From Ruditapes philippinarum (lineage: Eukaryota), in NCBI RefSeq assembly GCF_026571515.1, contig NW_026862474.1, forward strand, positions 434,001 to 498,000: a stretch of DNA of 64,000 nucleotides, read 5' to 3'. Below the pieces are notes generated by a model. It saw nothing but the letters and a program-made list of their open reading frames with translations. It was not told the DNA's origin and made no database searches. The position numbers were made by a program, and so were the translations under genes. Every line of letters begins with the position of its first letter. Within the stretch, counting starts at the first letter, position 1. Shown here piece by piece: positions 7,107 through 63,453 of the stretch.

Positions 7107-8423
7107 ATTTGCTGAGCTTTAAGGTACAGTACGCTCCCTACGCTTGCAGTCAGGCGGACTGGCGAATTATTTTGCTCAAGCCTTTTTTGAGACTTGAATA
7201 CTCAATTACGCATGCGCAAGACCGACGAAATTAATGATAGTTTTAGGAAAATTTTACCATCTGCCATGTTTTAATATGACTGATGCAATAACCTTGAGAG
7301 TGTTGTTTGATTATATGAAGCAAAAGGGGCGCAAGATGTTTCAGAAAATGATTACTCATCTCATCGCTTAGTGAAGCGGGAAATTCATACTACTTGAATC
7401 ATAATATATGCAAACTCTACATTTTGTAACTATAACAAATTGCTACGTCATGAAAAGATATAAAGACCATGCAGTACTTGCTATTAATATATAATGTTAT
7501 TTTTTCACTGTTGTGATTTTTTCTCTAATATAAGACCTTCAAATATCTCAGCAGTGGGTTTCCAGGAGGTGGCCATGAAAAATGATCAACATAAGTTAGG
7601 GAACTATTTTACTAAGTTGAGCTTAAATAAATATGTTTATAATAAACTAAACTTAAATTTGCTTTTTTAACTAATCAAAACAGCATAATCAGTGTTTATA
7701 TAGACCAAGTGCTTTAAGACATATTTCTTTGATTTTATCTTTTAGTTTTTATATCATTTAATAAAATTAGGAAAAGGGAAAGTGTTAACAAATAATTATT
7801 TAATTCTTCTCCTTTTTCTCCCTTTTCTTTTCATAATTATTATAATAAAAATTACTATTATCTTAAATGATATCATGACTGTTATTATTAATATTATTCA
7901 GAAACTAAAGTTTAGTAAAACATTTCAAAATTAAAGCGGATTTTATAGTACTTCAAAGATATAAGGAAGTAATGAAGTACATATTAACATATTAAAATGA
8001 GGACAACACACAGTTGTTTCGAAATACAATTGCACAATTTACCAGTTTATTATCGCTTCAATTACACGTTATCTATGCAAACATAATACATAAAGATTAT
8101 TTTAAATAACACGATACATTTAGATGCAAGAACAAAAACAACATTAATCTTATATTCATATATAAACTATATGTACGTAAATAAACCTTTTTTATTACAA
8201 TCATTTTAAACTGATATATCGCTACATGTATGCAAAATAAATAAATAACAAAGTAAAACTAGGTTAAAACATAATCTGCAATGAAATATCCTTGTTGTAA
8301 ATTATCTCTCATTGAACCTCTCATGATCCGTGATAAGGTACTGATAACAACGTTTGAAAGATAATCAGTCAAAATACAGAACGTTATTCGACTCGCATAG
8401 TTTAGAACTATAGAACACGCAAT
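7107..8423. promoter_or_regulatory. Putative divergent promoter region between ALF-like 2 and the cGLR, with kappaB-like and C/EBP-ATF-like sites
   Basis: The two ATGs point away from each other (7106 -, 8424 +). Motifs: GGAAAATTTTACC ~7246, TGATGCAAT 7281-7289, GGGAAATTCA 7378-7387, GGGTTTCC 7556-7563. These are short motifs with unproven function. Confidence 0.35.
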
Positions 8424-10944
8424 ATGGATAAGTTTGAAATATTACGGAACTTCGCTTTACCTTTTTATTCGTGTAATGATATCCAACTTTCAACAAGTGA
8501 CGTTAATGATGTGAATATGAATGAAATGAATTTCAGACAATTTTCGGAGCAGTTATTATGTTTAGATGATAAAAGACTAAATCGGATTTTAGATGATATT
8601 GATTTAAAACACAAAGTAAATGAACATGATCCGAAAACAGAAGAGATCGTCACAGCGACAGAGGCTCTTGTTAATGGCATACTTCAAGCTGCTGGTGAAA
8701 TTGACCCAAGGTTTCAGTCGAGATGTATTTATAGTGGTAGTTATTACGACGGTCTTAAAGTTGGAAGTGCTGACGAATTCGATTTTGTAGCACGTATTAA
8801 TTCTCTATCGAAACCAGGCGTTCTTGAAGCAAAACGATCTGCAAGAAAGCGAGGATTTGTTTATCTGGTAGTAAAAGATGTATCACTCATAAACGAGTTC
8901 GAAGATTTCTTAACGTCGCCAGATGATGATCCATGCTTAGATGAGAACGATGTGATATTAAATGTTGATACATTTCAAGATCATTTTCAAGATTTGATAT
9001 TTTCTGCTATAAATTCTATTGACATACCAGATAGCTTCATTCCAATCGAGAAGTTTGACGAAGATACCGAAACTCAACCATCCTGGCGACCTATTCGTAA
9101 CGGACCTTGTGCAACACTACGACTTTCCTATATGTGTCAAACTACGCAGGATGTTGTTGATCTCGATATTGATATTGCACCAAGTATTGCATATCCGGAA
9201 ATACATTATAAACCAATTGTCTTGGAAAAACTAGAAAGTCTGAAAGATAGAAACTCATTCCTGGACATACTTGAAAACATTTGTTTTTCCACAGAAGTCA
9301 TGCTTGTTCCATTTCGCTTTGACTATACAGAGCCCTCAGGTAAATCATCTTGGCACTATCATTATAGCAACACTTGGAGAGTATCTCATTCTTCTATTGA
9401 AAAGGCCGTATTTTCTTTATTTGGGAAAGACAGCGTTGAAAAAAAGCTTTGTCGAATACTGAAAATTTTGAAGGAAATATACCTGCAAGGAACTGAAGAA
9501 GTTGAAGTACAAAGTGATTCACGACGTTTAAAACTACAAGAGCCGCCGAGTACAAAACTTAATTTCTGCACTATAGAACCAGTGACAAGCGTTTCAGAGG
9601 AATATTTATACTGTTCAGATACAGATTCTGATGAACAATCGGGAAGTTTCGATGGAGAAGGCAATTTCTCTTCTGAAGACAATTTAATGGTGCAGGAAAA
9701 TGAAAACACTTGCGAATTCGAAGAATATGTACAGGATGAGAAATGTGATAATATTGAACCAAATACAATTATTAATCAAACCAGAAGTTTCAAAGAATCA
9801 AATAGCCTTAAATCAGTTTCCAAGTGACGAATGACCAAAAAGTGTTGAACGTTATCTAACAATCGCCAATCTGAGGATTCCTTTAAACAAATTCTACAAG
9901 CAATCTCGGTTGCAAGTTCCATTAAAGTCAACAGGATGGATAAAAGCAATTTAAGAACTATCAAAATCAGGTCTGAGGTGAGTCTAATATTGACCAAAGA
10001 CTGGAGTGTCCAATTTAATTTCATATTGGAAAAACCCAGATATCAATGCGAAAGAGAAGAAAGTTAATCGTTTGGAGTTTTTAATTTCCATCAATCAAAG
10101 TTTAACATGAATGGAAATGGGGCTGTTAACCCAAAAAAATATAGGAACAATGGAAAAAATATGGGTTAGAGACCCATTGATTAGTTAAAAAAAATAAAAA
10201 CATTGGGGCCCAAATTTAAAAAAGAACGGGGGTGAAAAACAAAAGGGTTCAGATCAATTGCAGCTAACGTGTGATGAAAATGATGAAATAATCTACGGTC
10301 AAAAATCAGTAAGTCATGCACAATTCTCAACACCAGATGTTGGAATAAGTCCATCAGAGAGCAAAATAGAGGAACAGTTAAGTAGTATTCCAACTCAGTC
10401 AGAGATAAGTAATGTTACTGAACCAGAAATGAGCAATATATCAAATTATGATTATAAAAGGAAGACACCATGTTCAAATGATGAAAAGAGTTTTGAAGAT
10501 TTTGAATCGCTTGCATCATCATCAAATATATATAATGAATCTTTGAATCATGGCTATTTAGAATCAGACAAACCCTCTGGTATTTTATCTGATGCTTTTA
10601 AGTTTGAACAAAGACAAAGTAAAGATAACAAAGGACATGAAATATATTATAGAGATTCGAAGCCTCTTTTAAAAACATATATGATAAAAATGCTATTTTT
10701 GGCGATGAAAACTGCATATCCCGATCAAGAAAGCTGGGAACCAAATCAGCTTTCAGTTCTTTTAAAGATGGCACTGTGCATGATTTATTTTGCCCACAAC
10801 TGCAAGGAAAAGGGGATTTTTAACTTCTGGTTCCAGGATTTAATTGAAAACCGGACAAGAAAATCTACATGCGCAGAAGTTTTATATTGCCTTGACCAAG
10901 TGGTCATGTATTTTTCCAAAATGATTCAAGATAACGGCAACTAG
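8424..10944 (+). CDS. cGAS-like receptor (cGLR, Mab21-family nucleotidyltransferase) with a long acidic insertion; frame interrupted between 9827 and 10258
   Basis: ORF 8424-9827 contains YSGSYYDGLKVGSADEFDF (GS loop plus ExD), DLDIDIAP (third acidic residue), WRVSHSSIEK and LCRILKILKE. ORF 10258-10944 ends in the Mab21 C-lobe (LLKTYMIKMLFL...W...L...GIFNFWF). The intervening segment is homopolymer-rich and has stops, so this could be an assembly error, an intron or a pseudogene lesion. Confidence 0.85.
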
Positions 10945-12848
10945 GTCACAGCAATGGAAAAGATGTTGAAATTCATAAACTGAAAGCACTCTTATAGACA
11001 TGGATGACAATTTTTCATCAATATGGAAGTGCTAATGCAATCTAAATGAGTTGATTTTTTTTCTGTTGAATAATATAAATGCACCCATTTTTTACATATT
11101 TCATTTAGAATATTGTTCAATTAAAATTTTAAGATTCCTTTAAAATTCTAAATTAAGTTTTGCCAATCGAATATACGACAAAAAAAGAATCGAAAATCAA
11201 ATGTTTATACATTTAAAAAATATTTTACATGTCAGTACCAATTCTACTTCAAATCATTTCAAAACTGAAAGTTATAATATCAATGAATTAAACAGGGGGG
11301 GGGGGGGGCTTTTTGCATTATGATCCCCAATAAATTCATTAAATAATGATGCCGATAGATAGTTTTAATCTTGATTACACACTATACATGTACCAATGGT
11401 ATATAATTGCTGCCTAAAAAGCCAAAATCCGATAATCAATGATCTATCGTACGATGATAAAAATAGTTCATCCAAAAAATTCCAATCTGAAAATAAATCA
11501 TACCCTCATTTTTTTGACGTGATTCCGTCTATCAGGTCTTTATCAGGTATATTCTTAATTCATTTTATTCGAAAATGTATATATGTATATATATGCATTC
11601 ATATCCTTGATAAAACATGCATATCGCATTCAAGACAGTAAACGAAGTTTGGTTAAAAAAGAGATATATAAGATATACATGTATACAATTTATATGCATT
11701 TTCCTTGTTTAATTTGAAATTAGATATCATTTTATTCAAATATACTCTGTAATTATATATGCATAAACGTGTTGATCATAATTGTAATCATCCAGGTACG
11801 ATAACAATAGACATAAACCTTTTTCTAAAAATTTGGTTTGAAAATATTTTAATTACTTCATTCTTTAATACATCATCGGTCGAACGAGTTTGAAAAAATA
11901 AATTAAATCAGTCATCAGTTTAGAGATCAAAATTTCGTAACTTCCTGCCAGATTTTATTATTTTGACAATTTTGAAAACAAACATATGATAATTTAGGGT
12001 TAAACAGACAGTATATTTGTATTTCAACGTTAATAACAAGACTTCATTTTATATTCGGAACATGGCGTCACAAAAACTAGGGGACATGCACTTAATGGAT
12101 ATATGTCATGCAGGAGTATGGACATCCTAATGAACACAGACAATTACGTCATCAATTTAAGAACGGATGTGGTTTATTAACATCTTAGATATCTTGAAAT
12201 CTAAAGCGACATACAAATAAACATTTAAAACCCAATAATATAATAATTGTTATGATTTCAGACAGGTGTTAACTTTATAGATTACATTCTTTATCTTAAT
12301 ATGTTGACAATGACAATGACAATGACAATTTATTTATTGATATTGGCCACCGGCCCATTACAACAATATATACATTAAGATATAATTTCTTGACTGGTGT
12401 CAGTACAGATCGATGTAATTCCTAATAATGTTTATATTGAAACACACAGAACTATTGTTGAATAATTTACCAAAATGCGTGTCGTTCTTAACGAAAAACA
12501 AAACATAAGATCTTCACTTATGGCTATTCATTGCAAAATAAGAAAAACATACTATAGCCTTAACATTAAGGGCAATAGTGTTTTGATCAGTCTTGAACTT
12601 TGTACAACATTGCCCGAAATGAAAAGTAAATCCATTTATCACATCACTGTACAAACGTATTCAACACTGAAGTTTCAAAATTGAAAACAACAAACTAATC
12701 AATACCTAAAAGTAACATTCATGATATTATAAGCCTATTCTCAAATATTTTATAATAATAATTTCAAATTTAAGTATCTGTGTTATAACATACAAAATGA
12801 TTCAGAGAATATGATCTCAACAATATAGTAAATATATCCTATTGATTT

Positions 12849-15800
12849 CTAACTGTCAGTATCTGTAATACTTAATATCTCATTTCTCTTTTTGAATGCA
12901 TAATATGCATACATAGCTAAATTTGTTATAACATTATCAGATCGAGAGCACATTAGAACATTAAAGTTATGATTATTAGGATTGTCAAAGAATTTTTTGT
13001 TAATGTATTTTTCTCTAATCAAAGACAACTTTTTACAAACTAAAACAAAATGATATTCATTTCCAATTGCTTCGTGACATAATTTACATATCCTTTGTTC
13101 TCTTAAAATATTCTGGTATCTACCTTTTTCAATTTCTAAATCATGGGAGGACAACCGAAGTTTGGCAAGAGCATTTCTGAATTTTCTAATTGTCACTACT
13201 GTTAAGTAATATTCATGTTCGATATTGCATTTAAACTGTCTATACGCATACAATTTAGAACTATCATTTATAATTGTTTGCCATTCTTGTAGATATTGGT
13301 CCTTTAATTTTTGTACAAAGGAATTTATGAAATAGTCTTCATTATTGACTGTTTGATTATACCAAATGTAGCCAAAACCATTTTTACATAATACATTACG
13401 AATACCAGTACACCAATTAGTTTTCCCTGTACTATCATAAAACAACTGCATAAAATAGCATTTTTTAACTAATCTGTGCTCACCCATTTTGAGTATTTTA
13501 CACCAATATCTTACAGCTCTTTTAGCAGAATTTATAAACATAGGAAATCTCCCACAGTCACCTAGGACACCTGCATTAATTGTTTTTTCTTTCACACATA
13601 AATACCTTTTACATGCATAGTTATGCACTAACTCTGGCTGTACTAACTTGTGTATACCCCATATTTCTGATCCATAAAGTAAAATAGGACTTATTTTTGT
13701 ATCAAAAATATTAAAAAATACTTTTGGGGGTAACTGTCCGTAGTCATATAATTGCGAAAGTATAGAAATAAGTACTCTTTTTGCTTTAGACGCTTGTTCA
13801 CTAGCCATTCTGTTTAAGGACAACTGTTGTGTTAATGTTACACCTACTTAACTAAAATTGCTTACAACTTCACAAATTTGATTATCATAAAACCATTTCT
13901 CGCCTTTCGCTAATTTCCCACCATTCTTAAAAACCATTACTTTTGATTTTACAGGATTAACTTTTACATTTTTTTCATCACAGAAATCTTTTACCAAATT
14001 TAATAACTTCTGAAGGCTAACAACAGTATCTGCAGCTAAGGCCAAATCATCTGCAAATAATAAAGATGATAACTCAGTTGTATCTGGGAACAGCTGGATA
14101 CCTCTGGTTCCACTATTTTCAATTCGTTTAATTAATTCATCAATAAAAACTAAAAATAGAATTGGCGAAGCCATGCAACCTTGTTTTAGACCTATGGGAC
14201 AGCTGAAATATTCAGTAAGCCCTTCATCAGTTCTAACACAAGCTTGCACCGACCGATACATACCAAATATTGCATTATATAATTTACCTTTTACACCGGC
14301 TTGTTTTAAAGCTTGCCAAATATTATGTCTATTTATCAAATCGAAACATTTCATGAAATCAATAAATGCTACATAAAGTTTATCACCTGGCTTTGATAAC
14401 TGTTTGTCAATAACTGCTTGAAGTACATAAACATTATCAATTGTCGAGTAACCTTCTCGGATTCCAGCTTGGGGTTCACTAATTTTATTAAAGATATTAA
14501 TATAAAATGTTAGTCTCCGTGTCAAAATACTAGTATAAATCTTGCTAAATATATTTAAAAGAGAAATACCTCTATAATTATCAGTGGAATTTATATTTCC
14601 CTTTTTATGTATAGTAACAATAATTGCCTTACTCCATGATTCCGGAAAATCACCAATATTGTATAATCTATTAAATATCTTATTAACAAAAGAAATCAAT
14701 AAATCAATACCGTTAATAAAAAATTCTGGAATAATATCATCTTCACCCCCCGAAGTTCCTCTTTTAAGTTCTTTTACAGCCCTTAAGATTTCTTCGTCTG
14801 TAATTTCCGATATAAAAATTGAAAACTCTATATCATTATCTATATGCTCTGGTAAAATTGAATCAATCTCTTCAAAATTTTCATAGTTAATAACATTAAA
14901 TAAAGATTCAAAATGATTTTTCCATTCGTTTAAAGTAATTGAGTTTGAACTACGTGCTTTCTTATTACACATACCTTTAAGTTTATGCCAGAATGATTTT
15001 GTACTATTTGACGAATCTATAAGCTCGTCTAATTGTTTATAGTAAAATTCTTTTTGTTTAAAATTACTCGTCTGTTTAAATGTGTCTTTAGCTGATAAAT
15101 AATTACTCAAATTTTCTTCCGATCTATTTCTCCTAAACATACGAAGTCTGCTATTTTTTAAATACTTTAAAGATTTGCATTCTTTATCAAACCATTTTGG
15201 CTGTATGTTATGATTAATTTTTGACCTTTTTAAACAACAATTGCCGCTGTAATAAAGTACATCATTAAATTTAGATATTATTTCAGTTAATGATTTCGAA
15301 TTATCTACTATTTCTACCATATATTGATTAATAAAATCTGGCGATAAAATCTCTGCCAATTTTTCACGAAAAGTAGTTATATTGGTTTCTGTAAAAATAT
15401 ACCTGTTTCTTTTGGTATGTTTATTAAAAACTTTATTTACTATAGCCCTGTCGATATTTTGACATTCAATTTCAAAACTTAATGGCAAATGCGATGACTC
15501 AGTTCTATGTTCAATATTAAAATCAGTTATGAATTCTAAAATTCTATCCGAAAATAACAAATAATCAATTACACTGCAACCTTGGTGACTAACAAATGTA
15601 AAATCCCCTTTGTTTTGATCTCTACATAACCTTCCATTTGCTATTCGTAACATATACGTTTAACATAATTCTAATAAATCTATACCAAATGTGTTAACTT
15701 TTTTATCACAAGAAATTCTTGGACCTAAAATGTTATCTTCAAAAATATCAGCATATGCATCTATATCAAAAGAATATTTACATGTATACAAACAGTCGCT

Positions 15801-16319
15801 TCTATCAGCTGTTCGTGCATTTAAATCTCCACAGATAATAAGTTCTGCATTGGCATCTTGCATCAAATTAATAATAATGTCTTCTAACATATCAATACCT
15901 TTCCGACTTCTCCCACTATAAAATTGGGAAGATATCGGAGGTAAATATATAAAGCCCATAATTATACTCTTTTCATATTTACAAACATTCTCATCTAATT
16001 TTAGGAACACACCAAAATCACAATAATGAAAGACTCGTGTCACATTCTTGCTAAATGATTTTCTAATAAAAACAACAATACCAGCCATTGCTCTTCCTGC
16101 TAATGCATGTTTTATACCTGATACAATATATAAATCATATTCTGGTAAAAAGGATTCAACATGTGATTGGTCAGTTAGTCAAGTTTCTAAAAATACAACT
16201 ATATCGTATTGATGTAAAAAAGTTTTAAGTTCAGTATCAAATGTCTTATTACAAAAACCTTCTATATTCCAACATAAACAGTTCAAAGATATGTCATTGT
16301 ATGAGCCTCGGCCATTATC
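12849..16319 (-). pseudogene. LINE ORF2 (APE endonuclease, reverse transcriptase, C-terminal CCHC), all in one frame with three premature stops
   Basis: APE motifs CWNIEG, FLET*, ICGDLNAR, SVIDY, SSHLP. RT motifs NYRGISLL, AFIDF, GLKQG, LFADD. C-terminal RICKLC...EYHFVLVC. Stops at 16179-16181 (for W), 15660-15662 and 13848-13850 (for Y). Confidence 0.92.
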
Positions 16320-17636
16320 CTATATATAAGAAACTTCATTTAAACTCTCTGTATCAGTCAACTCGTTGTTCTCAGTAGTCATATTAGTTTGAATGTTTCG
16401 CATAGATAGGTTCCCAATATCGACTCTGGTTTCAGTTACGTCCCTTCTTTTCCCTACTCTGAAGATACGATCACCATTTTCATTTTCAGATTGACTCGAT
16501 TTTGTATTTTTGCCACTATTTTCAAACAATCTCAATTGACCTTTATAAAAATAACCCATTTTCCCCTCGCTTTTAAGTTTATTCAGTTTTTGCCTTTGCC
16601 TTCTCGTCAAGTCATCACTAATTCTGATCCCATTGTTCCGTAGTATATCTCTTCCTTTGAAAATTTTAAACTTATCATCATCAAATCTAAAAGTGACTAG
16701 CACCATGCGACAAATTCCTTCCGCTTTATTACCCTGTCTTGAAACAAATTTCAAATCATCAGGTATCCACGATTCATCAGGACTTGCAACATTAAGCACT
16801 TCTTTAATAACTTTTGATTTCAGACTACCAATAGATTCACTGTTGGTTTCGCTTAAACCAAAAATTCTTAAATTGCTCTTCTTTGCTTCGTGTTCAAGAT
16901 AATCAATGTCATTACCAATTTCTTCAAACTCTTCCATTTTCCGATCAATTTTATCACTAAGGTATTCAACATCTAACTGTAGATTTTCTCTGGTTTCTCT
17001 CAAAAAATCGACTTCACCTTTTAATTTCGACACTTCTTTTTCATACTCACTGTGATACCGTTTAAGTTTAGATAATTCTTTTTTATTTTCGATACATTCA
17101 ATTTTTGTTAAAGCTACATCAGATTTAATTGACAACATTTCTGACTTAACATCATGCAGCTCTCTCATTAAACGATGATCAAGTGCACTAATGGCTTCTA
17201 GTATTCTCGTCTCACTGTCATCAGAAACTGGACCAGGGTTTGATTCAATGTCACCAGAAATCAGTAATAGTTTTCTCTGTATACCTGGGAATAGTGGCCA
17301 AAATGTGAATGGACTGGAGTATGTGCCAAAATCAACTGGCCAAGGAAGAATATTTCCATATATAAGATTTTGAATTTTCTGTGAGTCCACAATAATTTGA
17401 TCTTCTAGCAGTGGACAATTTTCATCCGTGTTGATATAACTATTAAATACCGATAGCACCAAATTTACACACCATAGACATGTAAGAATAACAGTTAAGG
17501 TTGCAAATATTCTGTAATGTTTATCAGAACTTGATGAAGTAGTGTATGGCCTATATCGCTCCTTTTTCAATACTTGCTTGTGACCAGGTTGATATAAACC
17601 AATACGTTCTCTATATGTAATTAAATCAACACCCAT
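16320..17636 (-). CDS. LINE ORF1: hydrophobic N-terminal peptide, 2A-like motif, coiled coil and L1-ORF1p-like RRM/CTD
   Basis: 438-aa ORF with a TM-like stretch (IFATLTVILTCLWCVNLVLSVF), LLLISGDIESNPGP, a heptad-rich E/K region and NLRIFGLSE...ISDDLTRRQR. Confidence 0.85.
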   Translation of the reverse strand: MGVDLITYRERIGLYQPGHKQVLKKERYRPYTTSSSSDKHYRIFATLTVILTCLWCVNLVLSVFNSYINTDENCPLLEDQIIVDSQKIQNLIYGNILPWPVDFGTYSSPFTFWPLFPGIQRKLLLISGDIESNPGPVSDDSETRILEAISALDHRLMRELHDVKSEMLSIKSDVALTKIECIENKKELSKLKRYHSEYEKEVSKLKGEVDFLRETRENLQLDVEYLSDKIDRKMEEFEEIGNDIDYLEHEAKKSNLRIFGLSETNSESIGSLKSKVIKEVLNVASPDESWIPDDLKFVSRQGNKAEGICRMVLVTFRFDDDKFKIFKGRDILRNNGIRISDDLTRRQRQKLNKLKSEGKMGYFYKGQLRLFENSGKNTKSSQSENENGDRIFRVGKRRDVTETRVDIGNLSMRNIQTNMTTENNELTDTESLNEVSYI

Positions 17637-19192
17637 ACTTGTATATATGTTAAAGCTGAGTACATGTTTGGAATTTCCATATCATGTCTTTGTAATGATA
17701 ATTGATTAAGCATATGCGATTGGAAACATTTATATCATACCTGTAACTCAATTTTTTATGGTTTTATATCATAAATATGTTGCTCAAATGAGGATTTATC
17801 AATATTGTAAGTTCCAAAAGCATTATTTGTAAATATATTACCGAATTTATATCTCATTTAAATAGGGAGGCAATTAGAAACTTATTTTCTATAAAGTCTA
17901 AGTCAAATTTTCCAACATAAAATGAATGCATATATTTTAATAATTACATATATTATGTACAAATATTAGCAGTACATTTTTTACATATTCTTCGGTGTTC
18001 GAAAACTCTTTTAGAAGCATAATTATAAACATATATAAAATTTCACTTTAGTGTGGTAATAACATTAATTACAACATAGGCTCTTTAATCAATTTGGAAA
18101 TATGTTTGAAATATTGAATATTTTTAGGGTTACAAAATAATACATTTTTATGGTGTATGATTACAGGTGGAGAACTCGTTCACATAGAGCATATCCTTAA
18201 ATCCCTGAAACTAAGTAAACTAGATGATGCAAAGAAAAAAGACATTTCTAAGGCGAAAGGTAAAACATTTATATCTTTCCATGTGGCGCATAATTGTCTC
18301 TCGAATTCGCACATTAACACCCAATTGAAATAAGAATAATATATTCTTTTCCCTTACAGGAGAAAAGCGGCGTCAGAGATGTGCATGTTGTCAACAAAGA
18401 CGCAGGGAAAAGGTATAATAAACATAACTAGGAAGCGCAATGCTCAATTAGATAGTTAAAATAGTCATTAAAATATCAGAAATCATAATGAGACACATTC
18501 ATTTACATGCTATGCTGCCTTTTAATTGATGCCAATAGTCCATGGAGGCAGATAATTTACTAAAATATGTAGAATCAGTTCTATGAGTGGACTTGATCAT
18601 AAGTTATAACTAGATCTGTTATTTACACAGTGCAATAGTCTCATCAAAGCTGACATTCACTTGACTGAAATACTAGTTGAATTGTAACACAAATCGATCG
18701 ATTGCATTTGAGGATGTAACACTGTAACTTTCACTGATAGGATAAAAATCTTCTCGAACAGGATGACCTTTTTACACTGACTTTAATCATTTTCTTTATA
18801 AATTTAGAAATTACGACGAGAAAGCATCCGAACACCCGCCAATTTCTTACAGAGATTTATCCTTAAAGGTGACAACTTTTAATGCATTTGTCGTTTTATA
18901 TGTATGCTTATGTTATCTTTACTCGTTTTTTATACAACAAAATCTTAGCAATTAATCTTAAAATTATTTACTTTTAAAATAGACATTAAATAATTGATCC
19001 ATTTAAATGTTGTCTTTATATGCATGTAGTGTGTGTAGTGTGACGATTATTGAAGATTGCAGGCCAGTACTTATTAATCATGAAGGGAAAGATCACGATT
19101 TTCGTATATGTAGAAACTAACGGTTATGATTAATTCAATATTCCAATAAACGATATCCGGAATTCGGCAAAGTGGCTTTTTTCAGCTAATCT

Positions 19193-37900: not shown

Positions 37901-39312
37901 TTAAATCATTTTTATTAATGCACCGGAGAATGTGTTCCAACGATACACATCCTGTTTTATAATCGTGCCACTATGACCACCTGGTAAAACCTCGACCCAT
38001 ATCTTCTGTCCGGCGGTCACTATTGCAACTGTATCAGCTGAAGAACATCCATATCTATCATCACCTCTGAACAATGACGTTGTATATATTGTTCCTTCAA
38101 TCATTATACCAACAATTAAAGTCTGTTGGGCTAAAACACAGAAAGCTAAACTGAACATGTACAACCCATTGACTGGTGCTGTAAACTTTCCGGTACCAAG
38201 GTTATACGCATCTGCTTCGTTGAAGAGGACTGTTGGAAACACTATGATTTGACTGTTCTCAACTGACACAATCGCATTTAATCTTGCCTTAAATGCAACT
38301 GTATGTGTTACAGCATCTAAAAATAAAGAACGTTATGAATTTAAAAGCATGCGATATTATTTGTTTTATGCAAACAATTGAAAAACTAGATTTAACTCCT
38401 TGAAATGAAATTCCTACTGTATTACTCATAGAATTCTCATTTTTTTGTTCCGTGTGTTAATGTATGTTTCCCTGCATAAAATTCAATTATTGCTCTTCAC
38501 TAGAATGGTTAATAATATTTCCGCCACAATGATTACTATAATTTCTACAAACTTTCAAAATCCCGTGACGCTTTTGCGACTACATAATAATAACAATTGC
38601 ACGGCCGTGCATATGATGATGATGCGTCTTTTGCTTTTATCTCAATGGGCTCATATGTGTACTTGTGCACTTGCTGCGAGTTTAATGAAACACATTTTAA
38701 TTATTCACTGAACACATAGCTTTTATTTATCTTAGACATATATAATGTATAATATCAAGATAAATGCTTGAACTATTGTTCGTGAAACAAGCGGAACAGA
38801 TACGGATATTTTGTCGTCCTATATTTGATATTAATTATTTTACGCTGATCTGATTGACTTCTTTTAATACTTGTCAATGTTTTCTCTTTCGTTTAATCTC
38901 CTATACATATCTTATTACTATGATACAAGTACGAAAGATAAAATTTCTGTTAATGAATGATGAATGCAATGTTACCTGTATGACCTTTAAATTCATTGAG
39001 CTTTGTCTTAACTTCCGCTGTGACACCAGAGACTTCTTTCATACTGGCCTCTAAACTTGTTTCCAGCTCTTGTTGATTTGTTTTCATCTGATCACTCACT
39101 TCCATCTTAATACTTTCAACTTGTTTAACACATAGCTCAACTTCACTTTTCATATTCTCCATTTTAAATTCCATGCGCACCATTTTTTCTAGGACTTTTT
39201 CCTCAAAATCGTATTTAGAACAATGAGGTTCTTTACAATTCCTTCCACTTGTTAAAAGGAAAAGAAGAAACACCTTTTTACAAAGCGACATGTTTGATGT
39301 ATAGGCTCTCAT
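37901..39312 (-). CDS. Secreted C1q-domain-containing protein with N-terminal coiled coil (~250 aa). Model: join(39312..38976, 38316..37901)
   Basis: Signal-like KVFLLFLLTSGRNC and coiled coil CSKYDFEEKVLEKMVRME. Phase-1 intron. gC1q motifs: VAFKA, IVFPTVLFNEADAYNLGTGKFTAPVNGLYMFS, GQKIWV, NTFSGALI. Confidence 0.93.
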
Positions 39313-41819: not shown

Positions 41820-43400
41820 TCAGGTATCGAGTCTACTTAGGTAATCTGCACACACGTTGTCCTTTCCTTTCACAGCTACTATTCTAAACTTATAGTTCTG
41901 TAGAAACAATGCCCATCTCATTATGCGGCCACTTTCAACTTTACATTTCTGAATATACGTTAAAGGAGCATGGTCTGTATGCAGCTCAAATTCTTTCCCG
42001 TACAAATATTTGTTGAATTTCTTTATTCCAAATACCATTGCAAGACATTCCCTTTCGATAACCGAGTAGTTTCTTTCTCTATTCAACAATTTCTTACTCG
42101 CGTAAGCTATTGGAAGCAGACCATCATCAAACTGTTGAAGAAGTGCAGCCCCAACACCGGTATCTGAAGCATCACATTGCAAAACAAATGACTTTGAAAA
42201 GTCTGGAAGTCGTAGTATTGGTGATCGTGTCAGTACTTGCTTCAATGTCGTAAAGGCTTTTTCATGTTCTGGTTTCCATATGATTTTATTTGGCTGTCCT
42301 TTCTTCGTAAGATCTGTCAATGGTGAAGCAATTTCTGCAAATGAAGCAATGAATTTTCTGTAGTATCCAGCTAGACCAAGAAATGATCTCAGTTGCTTCT
42401 TTGACTCTGGTCGCATAGCGTCTCTAATTTTGACTAATTTGTCATCTTCCATTTGCATTTGTCCTTTGCCAACAACATGACCGGTAAATGGTATACTTTC
42501 AAATCCAATCATACATTTAGAAGGTTTAACTGTGATCTTTGCTTCTCGTATTCTTTCGAACAACTGTCTCAACATTTTTATATGTCTCTCCCATGTAACC
42601 GTATGTCCAAGCACATCGTCAACATAGTTATCAGTATCATTCACTCCGGAAAGCAACTTCCGCATCATTCTATTAAATGTTGCACCAGAATTGACCATTC
42701 CAAATGGCATCTTTCTGAATTGGTAACTACCTTCTGTTGTAGAAAATGCTGTGAGATGTCTTGATTTTGCTTCAATTGGTATTTGCCAAAAACCTTTGGT
42801 CAAATCAATTTTTGTGAAGAACTTATCTTCTTTTAGCTTTGCCATCACATCCTCAACATTACCCATTGGTTCTGTATCAAACTTTGTTACAGAGTTGAGT
42901 CGTCTGAAGTCAATACAAAAGCGGTTTGTATTATCCTTTTTCTTCACCAAAACAATTGGTGAATTATAATCAGAATTTGCTGGTTCAATGATACCACATT
43001 CAAGCATTTTCTTAATTTCATCCTCTACCGCTGTCCTTTTTGCATATGGTATCGTATATTGTCTAACACGAATTGGTGTTTTGTCAGTCAACTCAATCTT
43101 GTGAGATTCAAGATCTGTAGTTCCGGGAATATCAGTAAAAATATCCTCAAATTCTTGAAGCAACGCATTTACTTCTGATTTTTGTTCAAGTGTTAATTGA
43201 TCATTAACATTAACATCTCTGTACGTCTCTTCACTCTGTGTGTCTACTAGTTCTAAAAGATTTTCATCATCAACAACCCCAGTTTCATCATTATTTTCGG
43301 CCTCTATTACAGCTACACTCGCACAAATTCTATCTTCTCTTTCTTCGTATTTCTTCAGAAGATTTATGTGGTACATCCCAATTCTATCACCTACTTTCAC
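41820..43400 (-). CDS. Pol fragment: reverse transcriptase + RNase H
   Basis: SPIVLVKKKD..RFCIDFRRLN, KIDLTKGFWQI, MPFGMVNSGATF, YVDD, FLGLAGYYRKFI, CDAS, YSVIERECLA, TDH, ADYLSR. The stop directly after RNase H means no downstream integrase. Confidence 0.92.
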   Translation of the reverse strand: MKVGDRIGMYHINLLKKYEEREDRICASVAVIEAENNDETGVVDDENLLELVDTQSEETYRDVNVNDQLTLEQKSEVNALLQEFEDIFTDIPGTTDLESHKIELTDKTPIRVRQYTIPYAKRTAVEDEIKKMLECGIIEPANSDYNSPIVLVKKKDNTNRFCIDFRRLNSVTKFDTEPMGNVEDVMAKLKEDKFFTKIDLTKGFWQIPIEAKSRHLTAFSTTEGSYQFRKMPFGMVNSGATFNRMMRKLLSGVNDTDNYVDDVLGHTVTWERHIKMLRQLFERIREAKITVKPSKCMIGFESIPFTGHVVGKGQMQMEDDKLVKIRDAMRPESKKQLRSFLGLAGYYRKFIASFAEIASPLTDLTKKGQPNKIIWKPEHEKAFTTLKQVLTRSPILRLPDFSKSFVLQCDASDTGVGAALLQQFDDGLLPIAYASKKLLNRERNYSVIERECLAMVFGIKKFNKYLYGKEFELHTDHAPLTYIQKCKVESGRIMRWALFLQNYKFRIVAVKGKDNVCADYLSRLDT

Positions 43401-44863
43401 TTTGAAGTCAAACTCGTTGACTGCTTCACTTACAACAAATGGACCTTTCCATTGTTACATCAGTTTATTGTGTGTTGAAGGCAGGAGCAATAAAACTTTG
43501 TCTCCTTTCTTAAGACTTCTTTGTCGTGTTTACTTATCGTAATGATGTTTATACTCTTCTTGTGAGTTGCTGAGATTCTCTCTAGCAATCTTGCATGTTT
43601 GTTCTAATCTATTCCTCAAATCTAGGACGTACTCATACGTATTACGTGTCTCTGGTACTTCTGTCGGGCATAACGGGCGCGCGCCTTTAAACTACTGCCA
43701 GTAGTTGAATTCGTATAAAAAACAACAAAGCACACAAAGCTGCACAATATGTCGTTCAAATGTTTGTAATTAAACATTCGGGACTACGCCTACATTATTT
43801 CCATTATTATATTTCTGCGCATTTGAACTCAAAACCAATATCATACAAGAACACATACAAAAATAAGATGTATAAGGTATATTTTAGTAAAACGTGCCTT
43901 ATGCATTTGCATTTAGATAAGTATTACATATTGTGCCTTCTTCTTTTTGTTTCGAGGTAGTGTACCTTTAAGAGCCCTCCTAATGTACTAATTTTCCCCT
44001 AGCTTTTGTTTACTAATCGTATACAGTGTGGCAATACCACTTGACTATGACGTCATGTTCGGCATCATTTCCAAGACAAATGTTGCTCGATTCGGAAAAG
44101 AAAACATTTTCCGTTTTTCGAAAAAATACAACTTAAATGAATAACAAGACAAAAACATAAACAATACTTACAATTAGGCGTTTAAATCGGCCTTCCGCTC
44201 TATCTCGGAAATGCCGTTCGCTCGTTTTACTGTACACCACAATTTTGAAGTGGAGCGACCGTTCGCCGGGCGTGAACATGCAAAGGGCCTTATATCATAA
44301 CTCAGTTGCCCCGATGAATTTTTGCGAAACAGAGACTTTTCTCTTTTTTGCCAAAACTAGCAAACATTGTACTGTTTTATCTCTAAAACAAAAATAGTTA
44401 TATAATTTAAGTTGATATTGGTTATATTTTTAACATATATTGTACTTAAGTTTTAATGTATTATATGGTGGCAATCCTGTAAATACATGAAGTTATTGTA
44501 AATGAAAATACACCACATGATTCATGGCAGATAAACTACATGTATGTTTGATTTTATTAGGGAAAATATTGCAATTGAATATATCAGACTCTAAATGGAC
44601 GGGGAAATGGACATAATTTCGACGCAACGGACAATAAAGATTTGCAACGGGTACGTAGATCTATGTTTAAAGATAAATTAAATCGTGAAGGAAGTAATTC
44701 AAATTGAGAATAATAAGTAATAGCCTTTAAAAAAATGATTTACTTTACTTTATTTTATAATATATTGAAAATAGCTTGGATATTCTAAATGATATTTACA
44801 TGACGGCGAAATGGACACATTTTCGACGCTATCGAGATTTTTATATAATGGTTTTATGTGCAG

Positions 44864-46276
44864 ACAAGAAGCGCCGCAATGCGACGAAAACCAGGTTTTC
44901 AACGACCAAGTTTTGATGTGACAGCAATTAAGTAATTGTAGAGAAGCTGAAAATTCTATTGTAAGCAAATGACCTTGAACTTGCTCCCAGATATCTTAGT
45001 GGCAATCCAAAGCTGCCACTCAGCAAGGTTGGTGTCAAAAGGTCAAATCAAAGTCAATTTATAACATGAAAACTAAAAACATTAACCTTGATCACAGACA
45101 CCTGGGTAGCAATCCCAAGCTGCCTCTTGATATAAACTACCCATTCATCAAGTTTGGTGTCAATAGGCCAAAGCAAACTCAAGTTATTGAGCGGAAACTG
45201 AATTTCTATTTTTAGTAACAGTGACCTTGACCTTGATCACAGACACCTGGGTAGCAATCCCAAGCTGCCTCTTGATATAAGCTATCCATACACCAAGTTT
45301 GGTGTCAATAGGCCAAAGCAAACTAAAGTTATTGAGCGGAAACTGAATTTCTATTTTTAGTAACAGTGACCTTGACCTTGATCACAGACACCTGGGTAGC
45401 AATCCCAAGCTGCCTCTTGATATAAGCTATCCATACACCAAGTTTGGTGTCAATAGGCCAAAGCAAACTAAAGTTATTGAGCGGAATTAGTAACAGTGAC
45501 CTTGACCTTGATCACAGAAATTTGGGTAGCAATCCCAAGCTGCCTCTTGATATAAGCTATCCATACACCAAGTTTGGTGTTAATAGGTCAAAGCAAACTC
45601 AAGTTATTTAGTGGAAACTTAATTTCTATTTTTAGTAACAGTGACCTTGACCTTGATCACAGACACCTGGGTAGCAATCCCTAACTGCCTCTTGATATAA
45701 CCTATTTATACACAAAGTTTGGTGTCATTAGGCCAAAGCAAACTCAAGCTATTGAGCAGAAACTGAATTTCTATTTTTAGTAACAGTGACCTTGACCTTG
45801 ATCAAGACACCTGGGTAGCAATCCCAAGCTGCCTCTTGATATAAGCTATCCATACACCAAGTTTGGTGTCAATAGGCCAAAGCAAACTAAAGTTATTGCA
45901 TGAGCGGAAACTGAATTTCTATTTTTAGTAAAAGTGACCTTGACCTTGATCACAGACATCTGGGTAGCAATCCCAAGCTGCCTCTTGATATAAGCTATCC
46001 ATACACCAAGTTTGGTGTCAATAGGTCAAAGCAAACTAAAGTCATTGAGCGGAAACTGAATTTCTATTTTTAGTAACAGTGACCTTGACCTTGATCACAG
46101 ACACCTCGGTAGCAATCCCAAGCTGCCTCTTGGTATAAGCTACCTACACACCAAGTTTGGTGTCAATAGGCCAAAACAAACTAAAGTTATTGAGCGGAAA
46201 CCAAAAGTTGACGCCCGCCCGCCCGCCGACTTCGGCATTACAAGAACCCGGTTTTCGTTGAAAACCTGGTTAAAAA
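44864..46276 (+). mobile_element. Complete non-autonomous Helentron/HINE-like element with ~8-9 tandem ~146-bp units
   Basis: Subterminal inverted repeat CCAGGTTTTCAACG/CGTTGAAAACCTGG, (CGCC)n microsatellite after the array, 3' hairpin and A-rich end. Confidence 0.85.
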
Positions 46277-52764: not shown

Positions 52765-53612
52765 AACTAGAAATGTGTCCATAGGACACAGATGCCCCCA
52801 CACGCCACTGTTCTGTCAATCTTATGACTCTAGGTCAAATATTTTTTGGACTACATGTGCCACAAGTTGAAAACTAAAAATCAACAAAGGACCATAATTC
52901 TGTTAAATTTGGCCGCAGCAAAAATTCCTTCCTTTACTACCATCTACACATTAAGGTTGTTCATCCCTGAAAGTTTAAGCAAAATCTGCCATCCGGTTTA
53001 AGAGGAGTTGTGTTCACAAAATTTCTACATAGTATATAATGAAAAAATCAACAAAGGGCCATAATTCTGTTAAATTTGGTCACAGCAAAAATTCCTTCCC
53101 TTACTACCATTAACACATTAAGGTTGTTCATCCCTGGAAGTTTAAGCAAAATCTGCCATCCGGTTTAAGAGGAGTTGCGTTCACAAAATGTCTACATAGT
53201 ATATAGTGAAAAAATCAATAAAGGGCCATAATTCTGTAAAATTTGGTCGCAGCAAAAATTCCTACCTTTACTACCATCTACACATTAAGGTTATTCATCC
53301 CAACCCTGGAAGTTTAAGCAAAATCTGCCATCCGGTTTAAGAGGAGTTGCGTTCACAAAATTTCTACATAGAATATAGTGAAAAATAACAAAGGGCCATA
53401 ATTCTGTTAAATTTGGTCGCAGCAAAAATTCATTCCTTTACTACCATCTACACATTAAGGTTGTTCATCCCTGAAAGTTTAAGCAAAATCTGCCATCCGG
53501 TTTAAGAGGAGTTGCGTTCACAAGATTTCGAAACGTACAGGCCGACGGACGTCCGGACACTCGGACGGACAAGTGCAACGCTATATGCTTCCACTCTGTG
53601 GGGGCATAAAAA
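52765..53612 (+). mobile_element. HINE/pearl-like element with four ~167-bp units
   Basis: Subterminal ATGCCCCCA/TGGGGGCAT, core AAAGGGCCATAATTCTG, (GACG)n-like microsatellite. Near-identical to 56435-57091. Confidence 0.85.
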
Positions 53613-53859: not shown

Positions 53860-56800
53860 TCAGGAGTATGAAGATTTCTCTGTAGAAAGTAAAAGTTCAT
53901 GCTCTGTGTCAGTCTGGTCCTTTGAACTTTTCTCATAATCTTCCTGATGTCGCCGCAGACTCCGACCAAAATAAAAAGCTCCAGATCTGTTCAATAACAA
54001 ACATTTTATTACATAATATAGGGTTTCTAGTATTCGAAATGTTGTTGATTAAACAACATATAGTTTCAAAAATTGAAATACCGAAGTTGTGGGATTTCTT
54101 TGGTTTCAAATGGGCTGATAACTTGAAGTACATTACTTATAACAGATCACAATAATTATATGCAGCACCTCATGCTTCTGAACTTTAAACATTAATTTGA
54201 TCTTGATTGCATAAGAAAGGTAAAAGTTTTCTTGAAACCACTTTAGGTTGTCTTATTCCTGGTAGGACACAAATGAACAATCGCTGGATGAAAGTTTAAA
54301 AACAGACACCCTAACAACTAGGCATCCTTTGCCTTTTCTCCAATGCATATGCATAATGTTGCCATTGGTTTTGAGCATTTGGTCATATGTATCTCATATC
54401 TCATTCATACTATATTCTCTAGTATATTGCCCCTACAACCTACATGAATATAACAAATAATATACAGGGTGGAAACTTAATCCATACCCAGCTGGAACTG
54501 AACATGATACGACTATTCCACCAGTACAGAGCCAGGCAAGCCTGCACATCCACCCAATCTGACCAGGCTCTTTACTGTAAAGCTTTCTTCAAATTCTTAT
54601 ATTAATATCCCCAAAATGATAACGGACAGTTCATAGAATTGAACCTGGACAATTTTAAAAATATAGGTATATAAGTATTATAATGACTGTGCTTCAGATA
54701 ATTTTTTCTCTCCAAAACCTGCATTAAAATGTTACCATGGAAACTTACCTGCCAAATCTTTCTGCATCTCGTATAGTTTCAGGAAGATTTTTATTTAAAG
54801 TTTCTGGTAATGTTAACGATATAAGCCCAGATAGAAGAGACATTCCACCAAACACCACCAAAGGTAGTATCTCTCGTGTTGTTCCACTCAGTGACTCACT
54901 CTAAATAAATAAAGATTATAAACCAGTTGGAAACTATTCATTGCCATTTGATTGAAAGACAATTCAGTAATTAATAACATTTTCGAACTGTTTCTTCATG
55001 AGTTTAGTGTTTACTGAAAGACTGAAAGTAACACCTTTAAAACTCAAAAATATTATACAAATGTTTGAATATACACTTAAAGTCAAGTCTTTCCTTGCTC
55101 TGGGATAACTATTCAGGGTTATTTTTCTCCCTAGAAATTAAACAAACAATAAGCAGGTGTAAAATTAGCAATCTGGCATATTCTTCAAAAACACACCAGT
55201 CAAATTTAAACAAAAATCCCTCCAATCCCCTTGGAATAAAGACTTTCCCTGCAGAGACATTCAGATTTTAAAATTGCTGTTTAACGTCCTTGCTTTGCAA
55301 GTTAAGACTACTTCCCTTACTGTTCTGGCATGAAAACAAAAGCACGGACCCAGTAGTGTGGGAGCAGACAAAAGGTAAAATATAGCTTATTTTCCCAGTT
55401 TTAACCTCAGTGACAGAAGCATTTCGGTAAAAGGCAATGCGTGGCCTAGTTAAAGAAAGCCATAGCAAAGCACTTACAATAGCTTACTTTTTTATAAAAA
55501 GATGTAATGACAAAATTAATCCAACCGAACTTACTACAGTAACAATATATGGGGCAACCATTGTTCCAAGCCTTGCAAATAGTGACCCTATCCCTAATCC
55601 AGCATTACGTACAACAGTAGGAAATAACTCGGCACTGTGAACATAGACCACAGAGTACGCTCCTGTCACACATAGTCTTCCAAACATAGCCAAAGCTATT
55701 GTGATAACATCTGACCCTGTAACAAATAACACATCAGAGAAATATAAGGGAAAGTGAGTTAACTCAAGTTAATTACATGTACACAAAAAATTGTTTTCCC
55801 AAAGCTTGAATGTGAGTGTAGAACTTCAGTCAATCGACTAGAGTGAAAAAATCCACCAGAATTGCATATTATGAATATACCTTCTGTAATATGTCAACAA
55901 AACTTTAAATGATGGAATAATTTTTACTTATGATAACTCTTTAAATTTGAATTTAACATCAGTACATATCTTAGACATAATAACACTTAAGCAATACAAA
56001 ATTTGAAACACTAAAAAATGATATGGATGCAGATAAATACACCTAAATTTGTGTTGTGGTGTATCTTAAACACTTAAAGTATCTTGTTTTATTACTCTGA
56101 TTACATGCATTTAATATAATATTTGTAATGCGTTGGGGAAAAAAAGATGCTACCTGGATGTGACATTGTTATATTTAATTGCATGTAAACCTTCTTAAAA
56201 CCAATACTTCTTGCAATGGTGTACTATTATTGCACTTCGAAAAACATTTTAAGGAATAGAAGGAGAAATGTTATAGAACATTGCATTTATAAATTATTTT
56301 GCTCAAGGAAAACCATACAAGTAAGAATAAGATATCTAAATATTACAGCTAATCCTTAATTTTTTTTGCCAGACACTTCATATTTTAATTAACATGTTTC
56401 CTAATAACATCATGGGACAATGCAATGAAAATGAAACAAGAAATGTGTCCATAGGACACGGATGCCCCCACATGCCACTGTTAGGTCAATCTTATGACTC
56501 TAGGTCAAATTTTTTTGGACTACATGTGCCACAAGTTGAAAACTAAAAATCAACAAAGGGTCATAATTCTGTTAAATTTGGTCGCAGCAAAAATTCCTTC
56601 CTTTCATACCATCTACACATTAAGGTTGTTCACCCCTGGAAGTTTAAGCAAAATCTGCCATCAGGTTTAAGAGGAGTTGCGTTCACAAAATTTGTACATA
56701 GTATATAGTGAAAAAATCAACAAAGGGCCATAATTCTGTAAAATTTGATCGCAGCGAAAATTCCTTCTTTAACTACCATCTACACATTAAGGTTGTTCAT

Positions 56801-62800: not shown

Positions 62801-63453
62801 TTCTTGTTCACAACTTAAGTAAAAAGCAGATGTCACTCATTGGTTTCACAAAAAATGGAAACTGTAATACAATTCTATTAAGGCCCCTCGAAAAAGGGGC
62901 ATAATTCCGTCAAAATGCTTGATACAGTTACCTCCTCCTGTCTACAGGTTGGGGTCATGATGGTAAGTGTGCAAAGTTTCAAAACTATATGACAATGGAC
63001 TTTGAAAATATTTGAGGTATTACAAAAACTTTAACGTAAATTCTAAGTCGAAAAAGGGGCATAATTCTGTCAAAATGCTTGACATAGTTACCTCCTCCTG
63101 ACTACAGATTGGGGGCATGATTGTAAACAGGTGTGCAAAGTTTCAAAGCCATATGTCAATGGACTTTGAAAATATTTGAGGTATTACAAAAACTTTAACA
63201 TAAGTGGTTACACCGACGCTCGGGTGACCACAATAGCTCTACTTATCAAATAGTCGAGCTAAAAATACAGTTGCAAGTATTTCACTCATTATATAGTTGC
63301 AAAAATCAGTTTCACATATAAATTTTCAGTATCAAAATTTAGTGTTTACATATCTGCGATGATTCCACTAGCAAATGAACCAACAAGCATTCCTCCATAA
63401 AATATCATCTCTGCATTAGCCACCCATATTTCTTTATCGCATACCAAATTTAC
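53860..63453 (-). CDS. SLC22-family organic cation transporter (partial, first exon outside the window). Model: join(63453..63350, 61129..60975, 59390..59222, 58468..58253, 57650..57424, 55716..55535, 54900..54749, 53986..53860)
   Basis: Motifs [35 protein letters not shown]...[17 protein letters not shown] and [13 protein letters not shown]. All junctions are GT/AG and in phase. The last exon is the least certain. Confidence 0.93.
56435..57091 (+). mobile_element. HINE/pearl-like element with three ~167-bp units (SLC22 intron)
   Basis: Same termini and core as 52765-53612, with a GGACGGACGGACTGACGGAC microsatellite. Confidence 0.85.
59469..60728 (+). mobile_element. HINE-like element with a 146/157-bp tandem array (SLC22 intron)
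   Basis: Subterminal ATACCCCCA/TGGGGGTAT. CAAAGGGCA(A/G)TAACTC recurs about every 150 bp. Confidence 0.85.
61867..63265 (+). mobile_element. HINE-like element with ~160-bp units, interrupted by an unrelated ~620-bp insert (~62268-62887)
   Basis: Subterminal GCT(T/C)GACTA/TAGTCGAGC. Core GAAAAAGGGGCATAATTC...AAAGTTTCAAAGCCATATGTCAATGGACTTTG occurs on both sides of the insert. Confidence 0.75.

Follow-up and report, generated by a model that had tools for sequence, protein, structure and literature searches.

Does the long acidic interruption in a cGLR gene of the clam Ruditapes philippinarum belong to the protein, and what might it contribute to an enzyme of this family? The gene lies in a 64,000-nucleotide stretch of contig NW_026862474.1 (positions 434,001 to 498,000), which as a whole is referred to here as the window, and a tblastn search within it finds one cGLR copy. 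A first-pass annotation had described an acidic, low-complexity insertion of about 390 codons inside the C-lobe and had offered several roles for it, including mimicry of nucleic acid, a protease- or kinase-gated tripwire and regulation of condensates. Our analysis indicates that both the gene and its insert are almost certainly real and conserved.

In the window, the gene is broken (Table 1). An ATG at 8424 opens a Mab-21/cGLR NTase frame that runs into a stop at 9825-9827, and the C-terminal part sits in a different frame (10198-10944) that ends with the stop at 10942-10944. The 1177 nucleotides between the LKILKEIY helix (end 9482) and KPLLKTY (start 10660) agree with the earlier estimate of about 1170 nucleotides between the LKILKEIY and KTYMIK helices, and the three frames contain 12, 38 and 28 stops between 9490 and 10660. 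The public gene model at this locus is a truncated protein of 467 aa.

The protein P0022, which comes from an independent JGI contig, carries an open insert of 380 aa with no interruption. It is 97% identical to the window on both sides of the insert (210/217 and 229/235 residues), and the window gap is 37 nucleotides longer than the P0022 insert. The insertion of about 390 codons is thus borne out as a real feature with 380 open codons in P0022, whereas the corresponding gap in the window is not open in any frame. Of the 24 sequencing runs listed, 18 contain at least half of the sampled words (best 0.72), and four runs were compared to the window. The window bases at 9782, 9810, 9817, 9840 (2 nucleotides), 9850, 9858, 10067 and 10093 are missing from all four; these positions are among 12 listed of 64 indel rows, most of them at full depth. 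Dropping the nine listed bases between 9782 and 9858 opens the frame to 9875 at two of the three position offsets tried. Random removals of nine bases reopen the frame in 544 of 5000 trials, and this result, taken alone, is modest evidence for assembly errors. The decisive evidence is P0022 with its open frame. The stops and frameshifts in the window are assembly errors, and the uninterrupted insert of P0022 indicates that the gene encodes an intact cGLR. The indel map rests on the four-run comparison (12 listed of 64 indel rows and 40 listed of 86 substitution rows) and on the comparison at the protein level. Two scans of metagenome contigs returned no DNA for P0022 or its relatives.

Table 1. 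Features of the cGLR locus, in window coordinates
Feature	Positions	Strand	Basis
cGLR coding sequence, apparently a single exon, about 827 aa if intact	8424..10944	+	236 aa from P0001 plus 591 aa from P0022; relatives colinear; broken by assembly errors
aa 1-353: NTase lobe plus the first C-lobe half, through the LKILKEIY helix	8424..9482	+	Pfam Mab-21; profile match to cGAS and Sp-cGLR1
Spine helix region, net -5 (ligand-binding face in nucleic-acid-sensing cGLRs)	8577..8714	+	Charge count
Catalytic GS loop and E118/D120	8730..8786	+	Conserved in 9/9 relatives aligned
Basic hairpin KRSARKRGF, conserved; sole clear basic patch noticed	8832..8858	+	Alignments; K/R-S-x-R-K-K/R-G-F in most bivalve members
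Third catalytic acid, D250 in DIDI	9159..9176	+	Invariant in alignment; cGAS SVDI acid no more than one column away
Ordered conserved stem of two short helices with EPPS at its end; prediction: folded with the C-lobe	9483..9554	+	24 aa; pLDDT 79-93 in both models
Predicted disordered loop, about 354 aa in P0022	9555..10653	+	pLDDT <50 over almost all of P0022 142-495
Acidic block of S, D and E with many S/T-x-x-D/E sites; charge -14 over 40 aa (P0022)	9603..9722	+	Charge and sequence count
First copy of the duplicated module (P0022 205-329); contains motif copy 1 around 9840-9870	9744..10150 (end approximate)	+	Score 155 versus 54 for the best of 60 shuffles
Error-rich assembly stretch, about 37 surplus bases, origin of stops and frameshifts	9780..10260	+	Run comparison; stop counts; P0022
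Duplicated module, copy 2 (P0022 339-466)	10180..10566 (start approximate)	+	Split local alignment
Motif copy 2, DEIIYGQ	10282..10302	+	Motif scan
Re-entry strand (SKPLLKTY) and C-terminal helical bundle	10654..10944	+	Mab-21_C; pLDDT 72-97 over most; same C-terminus in P0022

The first-pass annotation named two results that would speak against a function for the insert, namely its removal by splicing and its absence from orthologs, and neither is observed. No splice joint is seen at the insert in the four runs compared, and RNA contigs from run X17 (8748-9712 and 10606-10998) span the two insert junctions with no gaps; this run also has some depth in each bin throughout the insert. Nothing suggests splicing, although contigs alone cannot prove transcription. 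Orthologs, for their part, retain the insert at the same site, and a regulatory role is therefore plausible. An explanation by an intron or by decay into a pseudogene could draw on the stops in all frames of the window, on the truncated public model and on a 14-nucleotide deletion haplotype described below. It is scarcely credible against the open frame of P0022, the consistent lack of the surplus bases in the runs, and the presence of the insert in full-length models of five other bivalve genera. The absence of splice joints in the four-run comparison led us to reject the intron version.

Three further observations concern variation and coverage at this locus. A haplotype with a 14-nucleotide deletion in the NTase lobe (window 8663-8777) occurs in two of the four runs, X1 (depth 11.7) and X17 (depth 3.85), each belonging to a different study. 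Such a haplotype would represent either a null allele, through the frameshift, or a second copy that is broken, and the loss of this cGLR may be tolerated in some individuals. A contig from X3 has 33 different letters in place of about 100 window bases at 9943-10046, suggesting that the loop varies in length within R. philippinarum. Upstream of about 8400-8540, X17 and X2 cover little or nothing while the DNA runs continue; as the end points of X17 and X2 differ, this pattern is given no weight here.

The core of the protein has the characteristics of a cGLR. Pfam Mab-21 matches the N-terminal part (E=2e-7) and Mab-21_C the C-terminal part (E=7e-5, short of the curated cut-off). The family profile also matches Sp-cGLR1 and cGAS in two stretches, broken exactly at the insert site, and this combination of domains and matched stretches identifies the protein as a family member. 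The catalytic residues by which Li et al. (2023) recognize cGLRs are present (GS at 105-106, E118, D120 and D250) and conserved across the clade, in keeping with the GS...DEFD...D residues that had been read as intact, the acids being those of E-F-D and D-I-D-I. The GS loop, the three acids, and the residues aligned to cGAS WRxS, LK and Y..K show little or no variation within the clade.

Structural homology points the same way. A model of the Saccostrea ortholog P0014 (pLDDT 82) matches Cv-cGLR1 with Z 25.1 and rmsd 3.3 over 337 aligned residues, Sp-cGLR1 with Z 24.4, and human and mouse cGAS with Z 23.9, and cGAS structures are its best Foldseek matches. Set beside the literal pattern h[QT]GS...X50-90, the window has S before GS and about 127 residues to the third acid. 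The solved Sp-cGLR1 also departs from it (K before GS and about 105 residues, by hand count) and Li et al. list the orthologs as cGLRs, so the pattern is not discriminating. The zinc thumb reported absent is indeed lacking, as the H..CC..C stretch of vertebrate cGAS aligns to a gap. The enzyme likely makes a cyclic dinucleotide.

Comparison with characterized enzymes shows what is peculiar to the clam gene. Cv-cGLR1 (8gjw) and Sp-cGLR1 (8gjy) share with it the caged NTase fold, the catalytic residues and the lack of a zinc thumb. In contrast, Sp-cGLR1 has a linker of 5 residues rather than 380, and the clam spine is acidic rather than basic. Human and mouse cGAS also have the fold of the clam-type cGLR, in which the insert takes the place of the linker of about 12 aa with the KKH loop. 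The zinc thumb is missing from the clam protein, and the clam protein is acidic, not basic. Its disordered region is internal, whereas that of cGAS is an N-terminal tail.

The insert lies between two helices that are separated by only about 12 residues in human cGAS and about 5 in Sp-cGLR1, as judged by profile alignment. The human linker contains K427-H429, the KKH loop of site C, according to the available text of a cGAS study (PMC8365253), and the earlier description of that linker as a short loop belonging to DNA site C is thus upheld. In the clam, the first 24 aa of the insert form the ordered stem. Its order is predicted by two models, one of the Saccostrea ortholog and the other of P0022, the latter without most of the N-lobe. 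The EPP of the stem is invariant in 19/19 sequences, and the stem is also found in the anthozoan protein P0026. Prediction of structure and disorder therefore gives a divided answer for the insert: most of it is disordered, including residues 390-484 of the Saccostrea model, but about 24 aa at its beginning are ordered and conserved. The stem is predicted by the models to close the loop, such that the fold would tolerate any loop length.

Immediately within the loop is an acidic block, and in 21 of 22 inserts no more than about 15 aa separate the most acidic 30-mer from the start of the loop. The S/T-x-x-D/E pattern in which this block is rich is presumably a CK2-type consensus. The P0022 insert as a whole has a net charge of -40 with 19% D+E and 8% K+R, for a mean of -0.1 per residue. 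The description of the insert as acidic thus stands, whereas its designation as low-complexity does not: only 9 of 369 12-aa windows fall below 2.2 bits, the entropy of 4.0 bits is close to the 4.1 bits of the N-terminal core, and the label was dropped.

The rest of the loop is a spacer that changes rapidly. Identity to the nearest relative is 59/193 in the spacer, compared with 99/117 in the N-terminal core, 24/33 in the stem and 77/99 in the C-terminal core, and spacer identity falls to about 5-20% outside the closest relatives. Within the species, at least 18 substitutions are found in 618 clean loop nucleotides versus at least 5 in 1419 core nucleotides (40 listed of 86 substitution rows). 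The 18 listed loop substitutions create no stop, and seven are synonymous. An ESM Atlas search with the insert gave no usable match.

Relatives come from Mya, Potamilus, Sinanodonta, Mytilus, Saccostrea, Pinctada, Crassostrea and Ostrea, and the named full-length models with the insert are from Mya, Mytilus, Crassostrea, Ostrea and Saccostrea. Alignment to bivalve cGLRs, which had been proposed as a check, reveals that the position is conserved in oysters, mussels, freshwater mussels and clams. A net-negative insert of 60-380 aa is present at the site in 22/22 close relatives with both flanks, the bivalve clade ranging from 99 to 380 aa and the anemone Actinostola having 60 aa. Both flanks are present, and insert length is measurable, in 55 of the 166 proteins. 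Among these are 33 more distant cGLRs, of which 21 have 35 aa or fewer at this site, six have 52-74 aa, and six have 142-242 aa.

The inserts of four distant cGLRs (P0040, P0041, P0046 and P0064) are 74-242 aa long and lack the EPPS stem; three are neutral or basic. Judged from these sequences, invertebrate cGLRs may in general be prone to insertions at this site. In addition, the closest relative, P0003, has an exact tandem repeat of 19 aa in the C-terminal bundle, which is either a true duplication or a product of faulty assembly.

A FastTree phylogeny (43 sequences, 277 columns, P0084 left out) gives a support of 0.989 for the bivalve clade and 0.976 for the grouping of the window gene with Mya. 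The link of the bivalve clade to a group that contains anthozoans is unsupported (0.36). Mytilus groups with unionids and clams, and Pinctada is basal. These placements make hidden paralogy possible.

Inside the otherwise unalignable loop, one short pattern is kept across at least four bivalve orders. The motif [EKQ][IVL][ILV]Y-x-[RQ], or E-hydrophobic-hydrophobic-Y-x-R, occurs in 20 of 22 inserts versus 0.06 expected from shuffles, a count made in the same sequences from which the pattern was derived. A held-out fragment, P0030, which is the only informative held-out case, carries it twice, and it occurs in 2 of 127 other fetched proteins. No match was found in P0024 or in the anthozoan P0026, which means that the motif is not required across the wider clade; nor do the close fragments P0027, P0032 and P0035, which cover part of the insert, have a match.

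The length of the R. philippinarum insert, the greatest recorded, is largely due to internal duplication. Of 11 inserts examined by split local alignment, five (P0022, Mya, Potamilus, Sinanodonta and P0030) have duplications of 80-130 aa that outscore 60 shuffles; self-BLAST had missed them. From the aligned copies, these duplications look lineage-specific. All five include the motif or a variant, and duplications of 80-130 aa in a loop of 200-350 aa would often include it by chance.

These data bear on the view that the loop is simply permissive and has grown neutrally by tandem duplication, with the stem and motif as structural remnants that have no regulatory role. We consider this unlikely. 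The span of insert lengths, the poor spacer identity, the excess of listed substitutions in the loop over the core, and the unrelated neutral or basic inserts of distant cGLRs at the same site are what neutral growth would produce. However, such growth does not readily account for the retention of the motif in at least four orders, the fixed position of the acidic block, or the 18 listed loop substitutions that include seven synonymous changes and no stop.

The motif could also be an Atg8/LC3-interacting region (LIR) that leads to autophagy, with the acidic and serine-rich block as the usual upstream enhancer. In oyster members, the motif reads YEVL or YEIL after an acidic Ser-rich tract, which resembles the arrangement of Y18-x-x-L21 in FUNDC1 and its control by CK2 and Src, as described in the consulted part of that report (PMC5233613), and 11 of 22 inserts have an aromatic residue ahead of the motif. 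This reading is quite unlikely, though, given that neither copy in R. philippinarum has the aromatic anchor of the LIR core, [WFY]-x-x-[LIV] after acidic residues, and that Mya, Mytilus and unionids lack this anchor too. Moreover, conservation is strongest at the later Tyr and Arg, and the conserved Y-x-R lies outside what a LIR needs.

Another proposal is that the enzyme is unleashed when a protease from a pathogen cleaves the exposed loop, the conserved motif being the cleavage site. The loop is long, exposed, fast-evolving and polymorphic, as a tripwire might be. Yet a bait would be expected to diversify, whereas a single motif is kept across orders, and the models imply that a cut need not change the core, as the ordered stem would close the loop ends. 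We therefore regard this proposal as very improbable.

The charge of the core speaks to the class of ligand. Without its insert, the window protein has a net charge of -21 and a pI of 4.87, and 15 near-complete relatives have pI values of 4.79-5.95. The spine helix is net negative in 17/19 sequences, compared with +6 by hand count for the same stretch of Sp-cGLR1; net charge counted from sequence, without coordinates, is only a proxy for surface charge. The conserved basic hairpin, which aligns near the R236-R255 region of cGAS, could still bind a polyanion. It is missing from P0024, P0025 and P0026, all of which have an acidic insert.

In the sections of Li et al. available (PMC9980059), cGLRs that sense dsDNA or dsRNA have a pI above 8.5, a positively charged ligand other than nucleic acid is proposed for acidic cGLRs, and the activator of the latter is called an open question. 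The clam enzyme has neither the high pI nor the basic spine of a nucleic-acid sensor, and the acidity of the core itself suggests that it likely does not sense DNA or RNA. The idea that the insert is a polyanion that mimics nucleic acid fits poorly with these values, since an acidic core leaves such a mimic little to mask. Among characterized proteins, the auto-active Pd-cGLR (pI 5.0) and Sp-cGLR2 resemble the clam cGLR in their low pI and proposed non-nucleic-acid ligand, but neither a C-lobe insert nor the motif was found reported for them in those sections (PMC9980059).

A related possibility is autoinhibition in cis, wherein the acidic block folds onto a basic patch, so that the enzyme stays inactive as long as the block is neither displaced nor cut away; in one variant, the block mimics the acidic patch of the nucleosome, which inhibits cGAS via site B according to the available text (PMC8365253). 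The constant location of the most acidic 30-mer near the loop start and the conservation of the basic hairpin in bivalve members are consistent with this idea. Three considerations nevertheless make it rather doubtful: the acidic core and spine leave little surface of the nucleic-acid type to mask, the three proteins without the hairpin still have the acidic insert, and the mean charge of the insert is only -0.1 per residue.

It has also been reported, in the accessible part of a study of shrimp (PMC12928593), that LvMab21-1, LvMab21-2 and LvMab21-3 bind no dsDNA or dsRNA, do not produce cGAMP, and bind directly to IKKe, which they thereby activate. These Mab21-family proteins, likened to the clam protein by description only, act through a protein partner and are reported to be non-enzymatic. 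A clam counterpart would be a scaffold whose loop binds and activates a kinase of the TBK1/IKKe type without any cyclic dinucleotide. The acidic core and the motif-bearing loop are compatible with such a role, but the near-invariance of the catalytic residues across the clade is what one expects of an active enzyme, and we give this version little credence.

The reading that we favor, while holding it somewhat short of probable, is that the protein is a cGLR responding to something other than nucleic acid and controlled by a protein partner through docking at the motif. Of the roles first suggested for the insert, a kinase-gated one is closest to this, and the EPPS stem and the motif point to a docking or kinase-gated function. 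The spacer would act as a flexible tether for which neither length nor sequence is of much importance, and E-hydrophobic-hydrophobic-Y-x-R would serve as a short linear docking site. Phosphorylation of the motif Tyr and of the neighboring Ser/acid block would probably tune this site; CK2 and Src are the kinases whose consensus patterns were considered. A partner, which might be a kinase, an adaptor or a basic protein ligand, would on binding bring the enzyme into place or into clusters, acting near the active-site side, and would thus switch signaling on or off. The partner would thereby take the role that DNA and the basic KKH loop have in human cGAS, and duplicated motifs would add avidity. 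A complex prediction of the motif peptide with the ortholog core, run without alignments, scored 0.00 and gives no answer either way on binding.

A broader evolutionary scenario is conceivable but doubtful. This could be an old, low-copy cGLR lineage, with a stem common to anthozoans and bivalves, in which the loop that in human cGAS binds DNA was turned into a modular regulatory arm, and a Tyr motif that multiplied independently in several bivalve lineages would couple cyclic-dinucleotide synthesis to a tyrosine-kinase or other protein signal.

Membership in the cGLR family is already known through oyster orthologs. Tables S1, S2 and S4 of Li et al., as far as available, include C. virginica XP_022310590.1 and C. 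gigas XP_011454085.2, with pI values of 4.78 and 5.02, only Mab-21 annotated and an incomplete C end (PMC9980059). Table S1 also includes a likely relative, Dendronephthya XP_028404788.1. The two oyster accessions were not found in the table of the 140-protein screen, and the word 'insertion' was not found in the main text, in the available copy of that paper (PMC9980059). Among the matches listed for EPPST in Table S1 are one turtle (a chance match), one octocoral and one protein per oyster species, which is only suggestive of a single copy in oysters. A term search of a choanoflagellate cGLR preprint returned no description of the insert, nor was one found in the literature searched, a scope outside which subscription journals fall; the supplementary PDF of Li et al. 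may bear on novelty.

Other features of the window include mobile elements, one of which is a LINE-type retrotransposon on the minus strand (12849-17681), 1.9 kb downstream of the cGLR, with an ORF1-like frame, an endonuclease, RVT_1 and single in-frame stops. An LTR-retrotransposon pol fragment with RVT_1 and RNase H (41820-43454, minus strand) is presumably Gypsy-like. An exon with a C1q domain (37901-38332, minus strand; Pfam C1q, E=2e-17) is probably part of a bivalve C1qDC gene. Short tandem arrays with units of 145-167 nucleotides are located at 1-493, 45085-46201, 52876-53529, 56545-57027, 59684-60715 and 62888-63203, and the families with units of 145 and 167 nucleotides occur twice each.

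The findings correct a public gene model that assembly errors had shortened to 467 aa, and an insert-bearing cGLR is conserved across farmed bivalves. The defined stem, the acidic block and the 6-residue motif offer separately mutable handles on the activation of acidic cGLRs. Natural length variants from 60 to 380 aa are available as well, and a compact oyster ortholog of 588-610 aa suits expression. If the scenario of a modular regulatory arm is true, this would be an animal cGLR wired to protein signaling, in a guard-type form of sensing, rather than to foreign nucleic acid.
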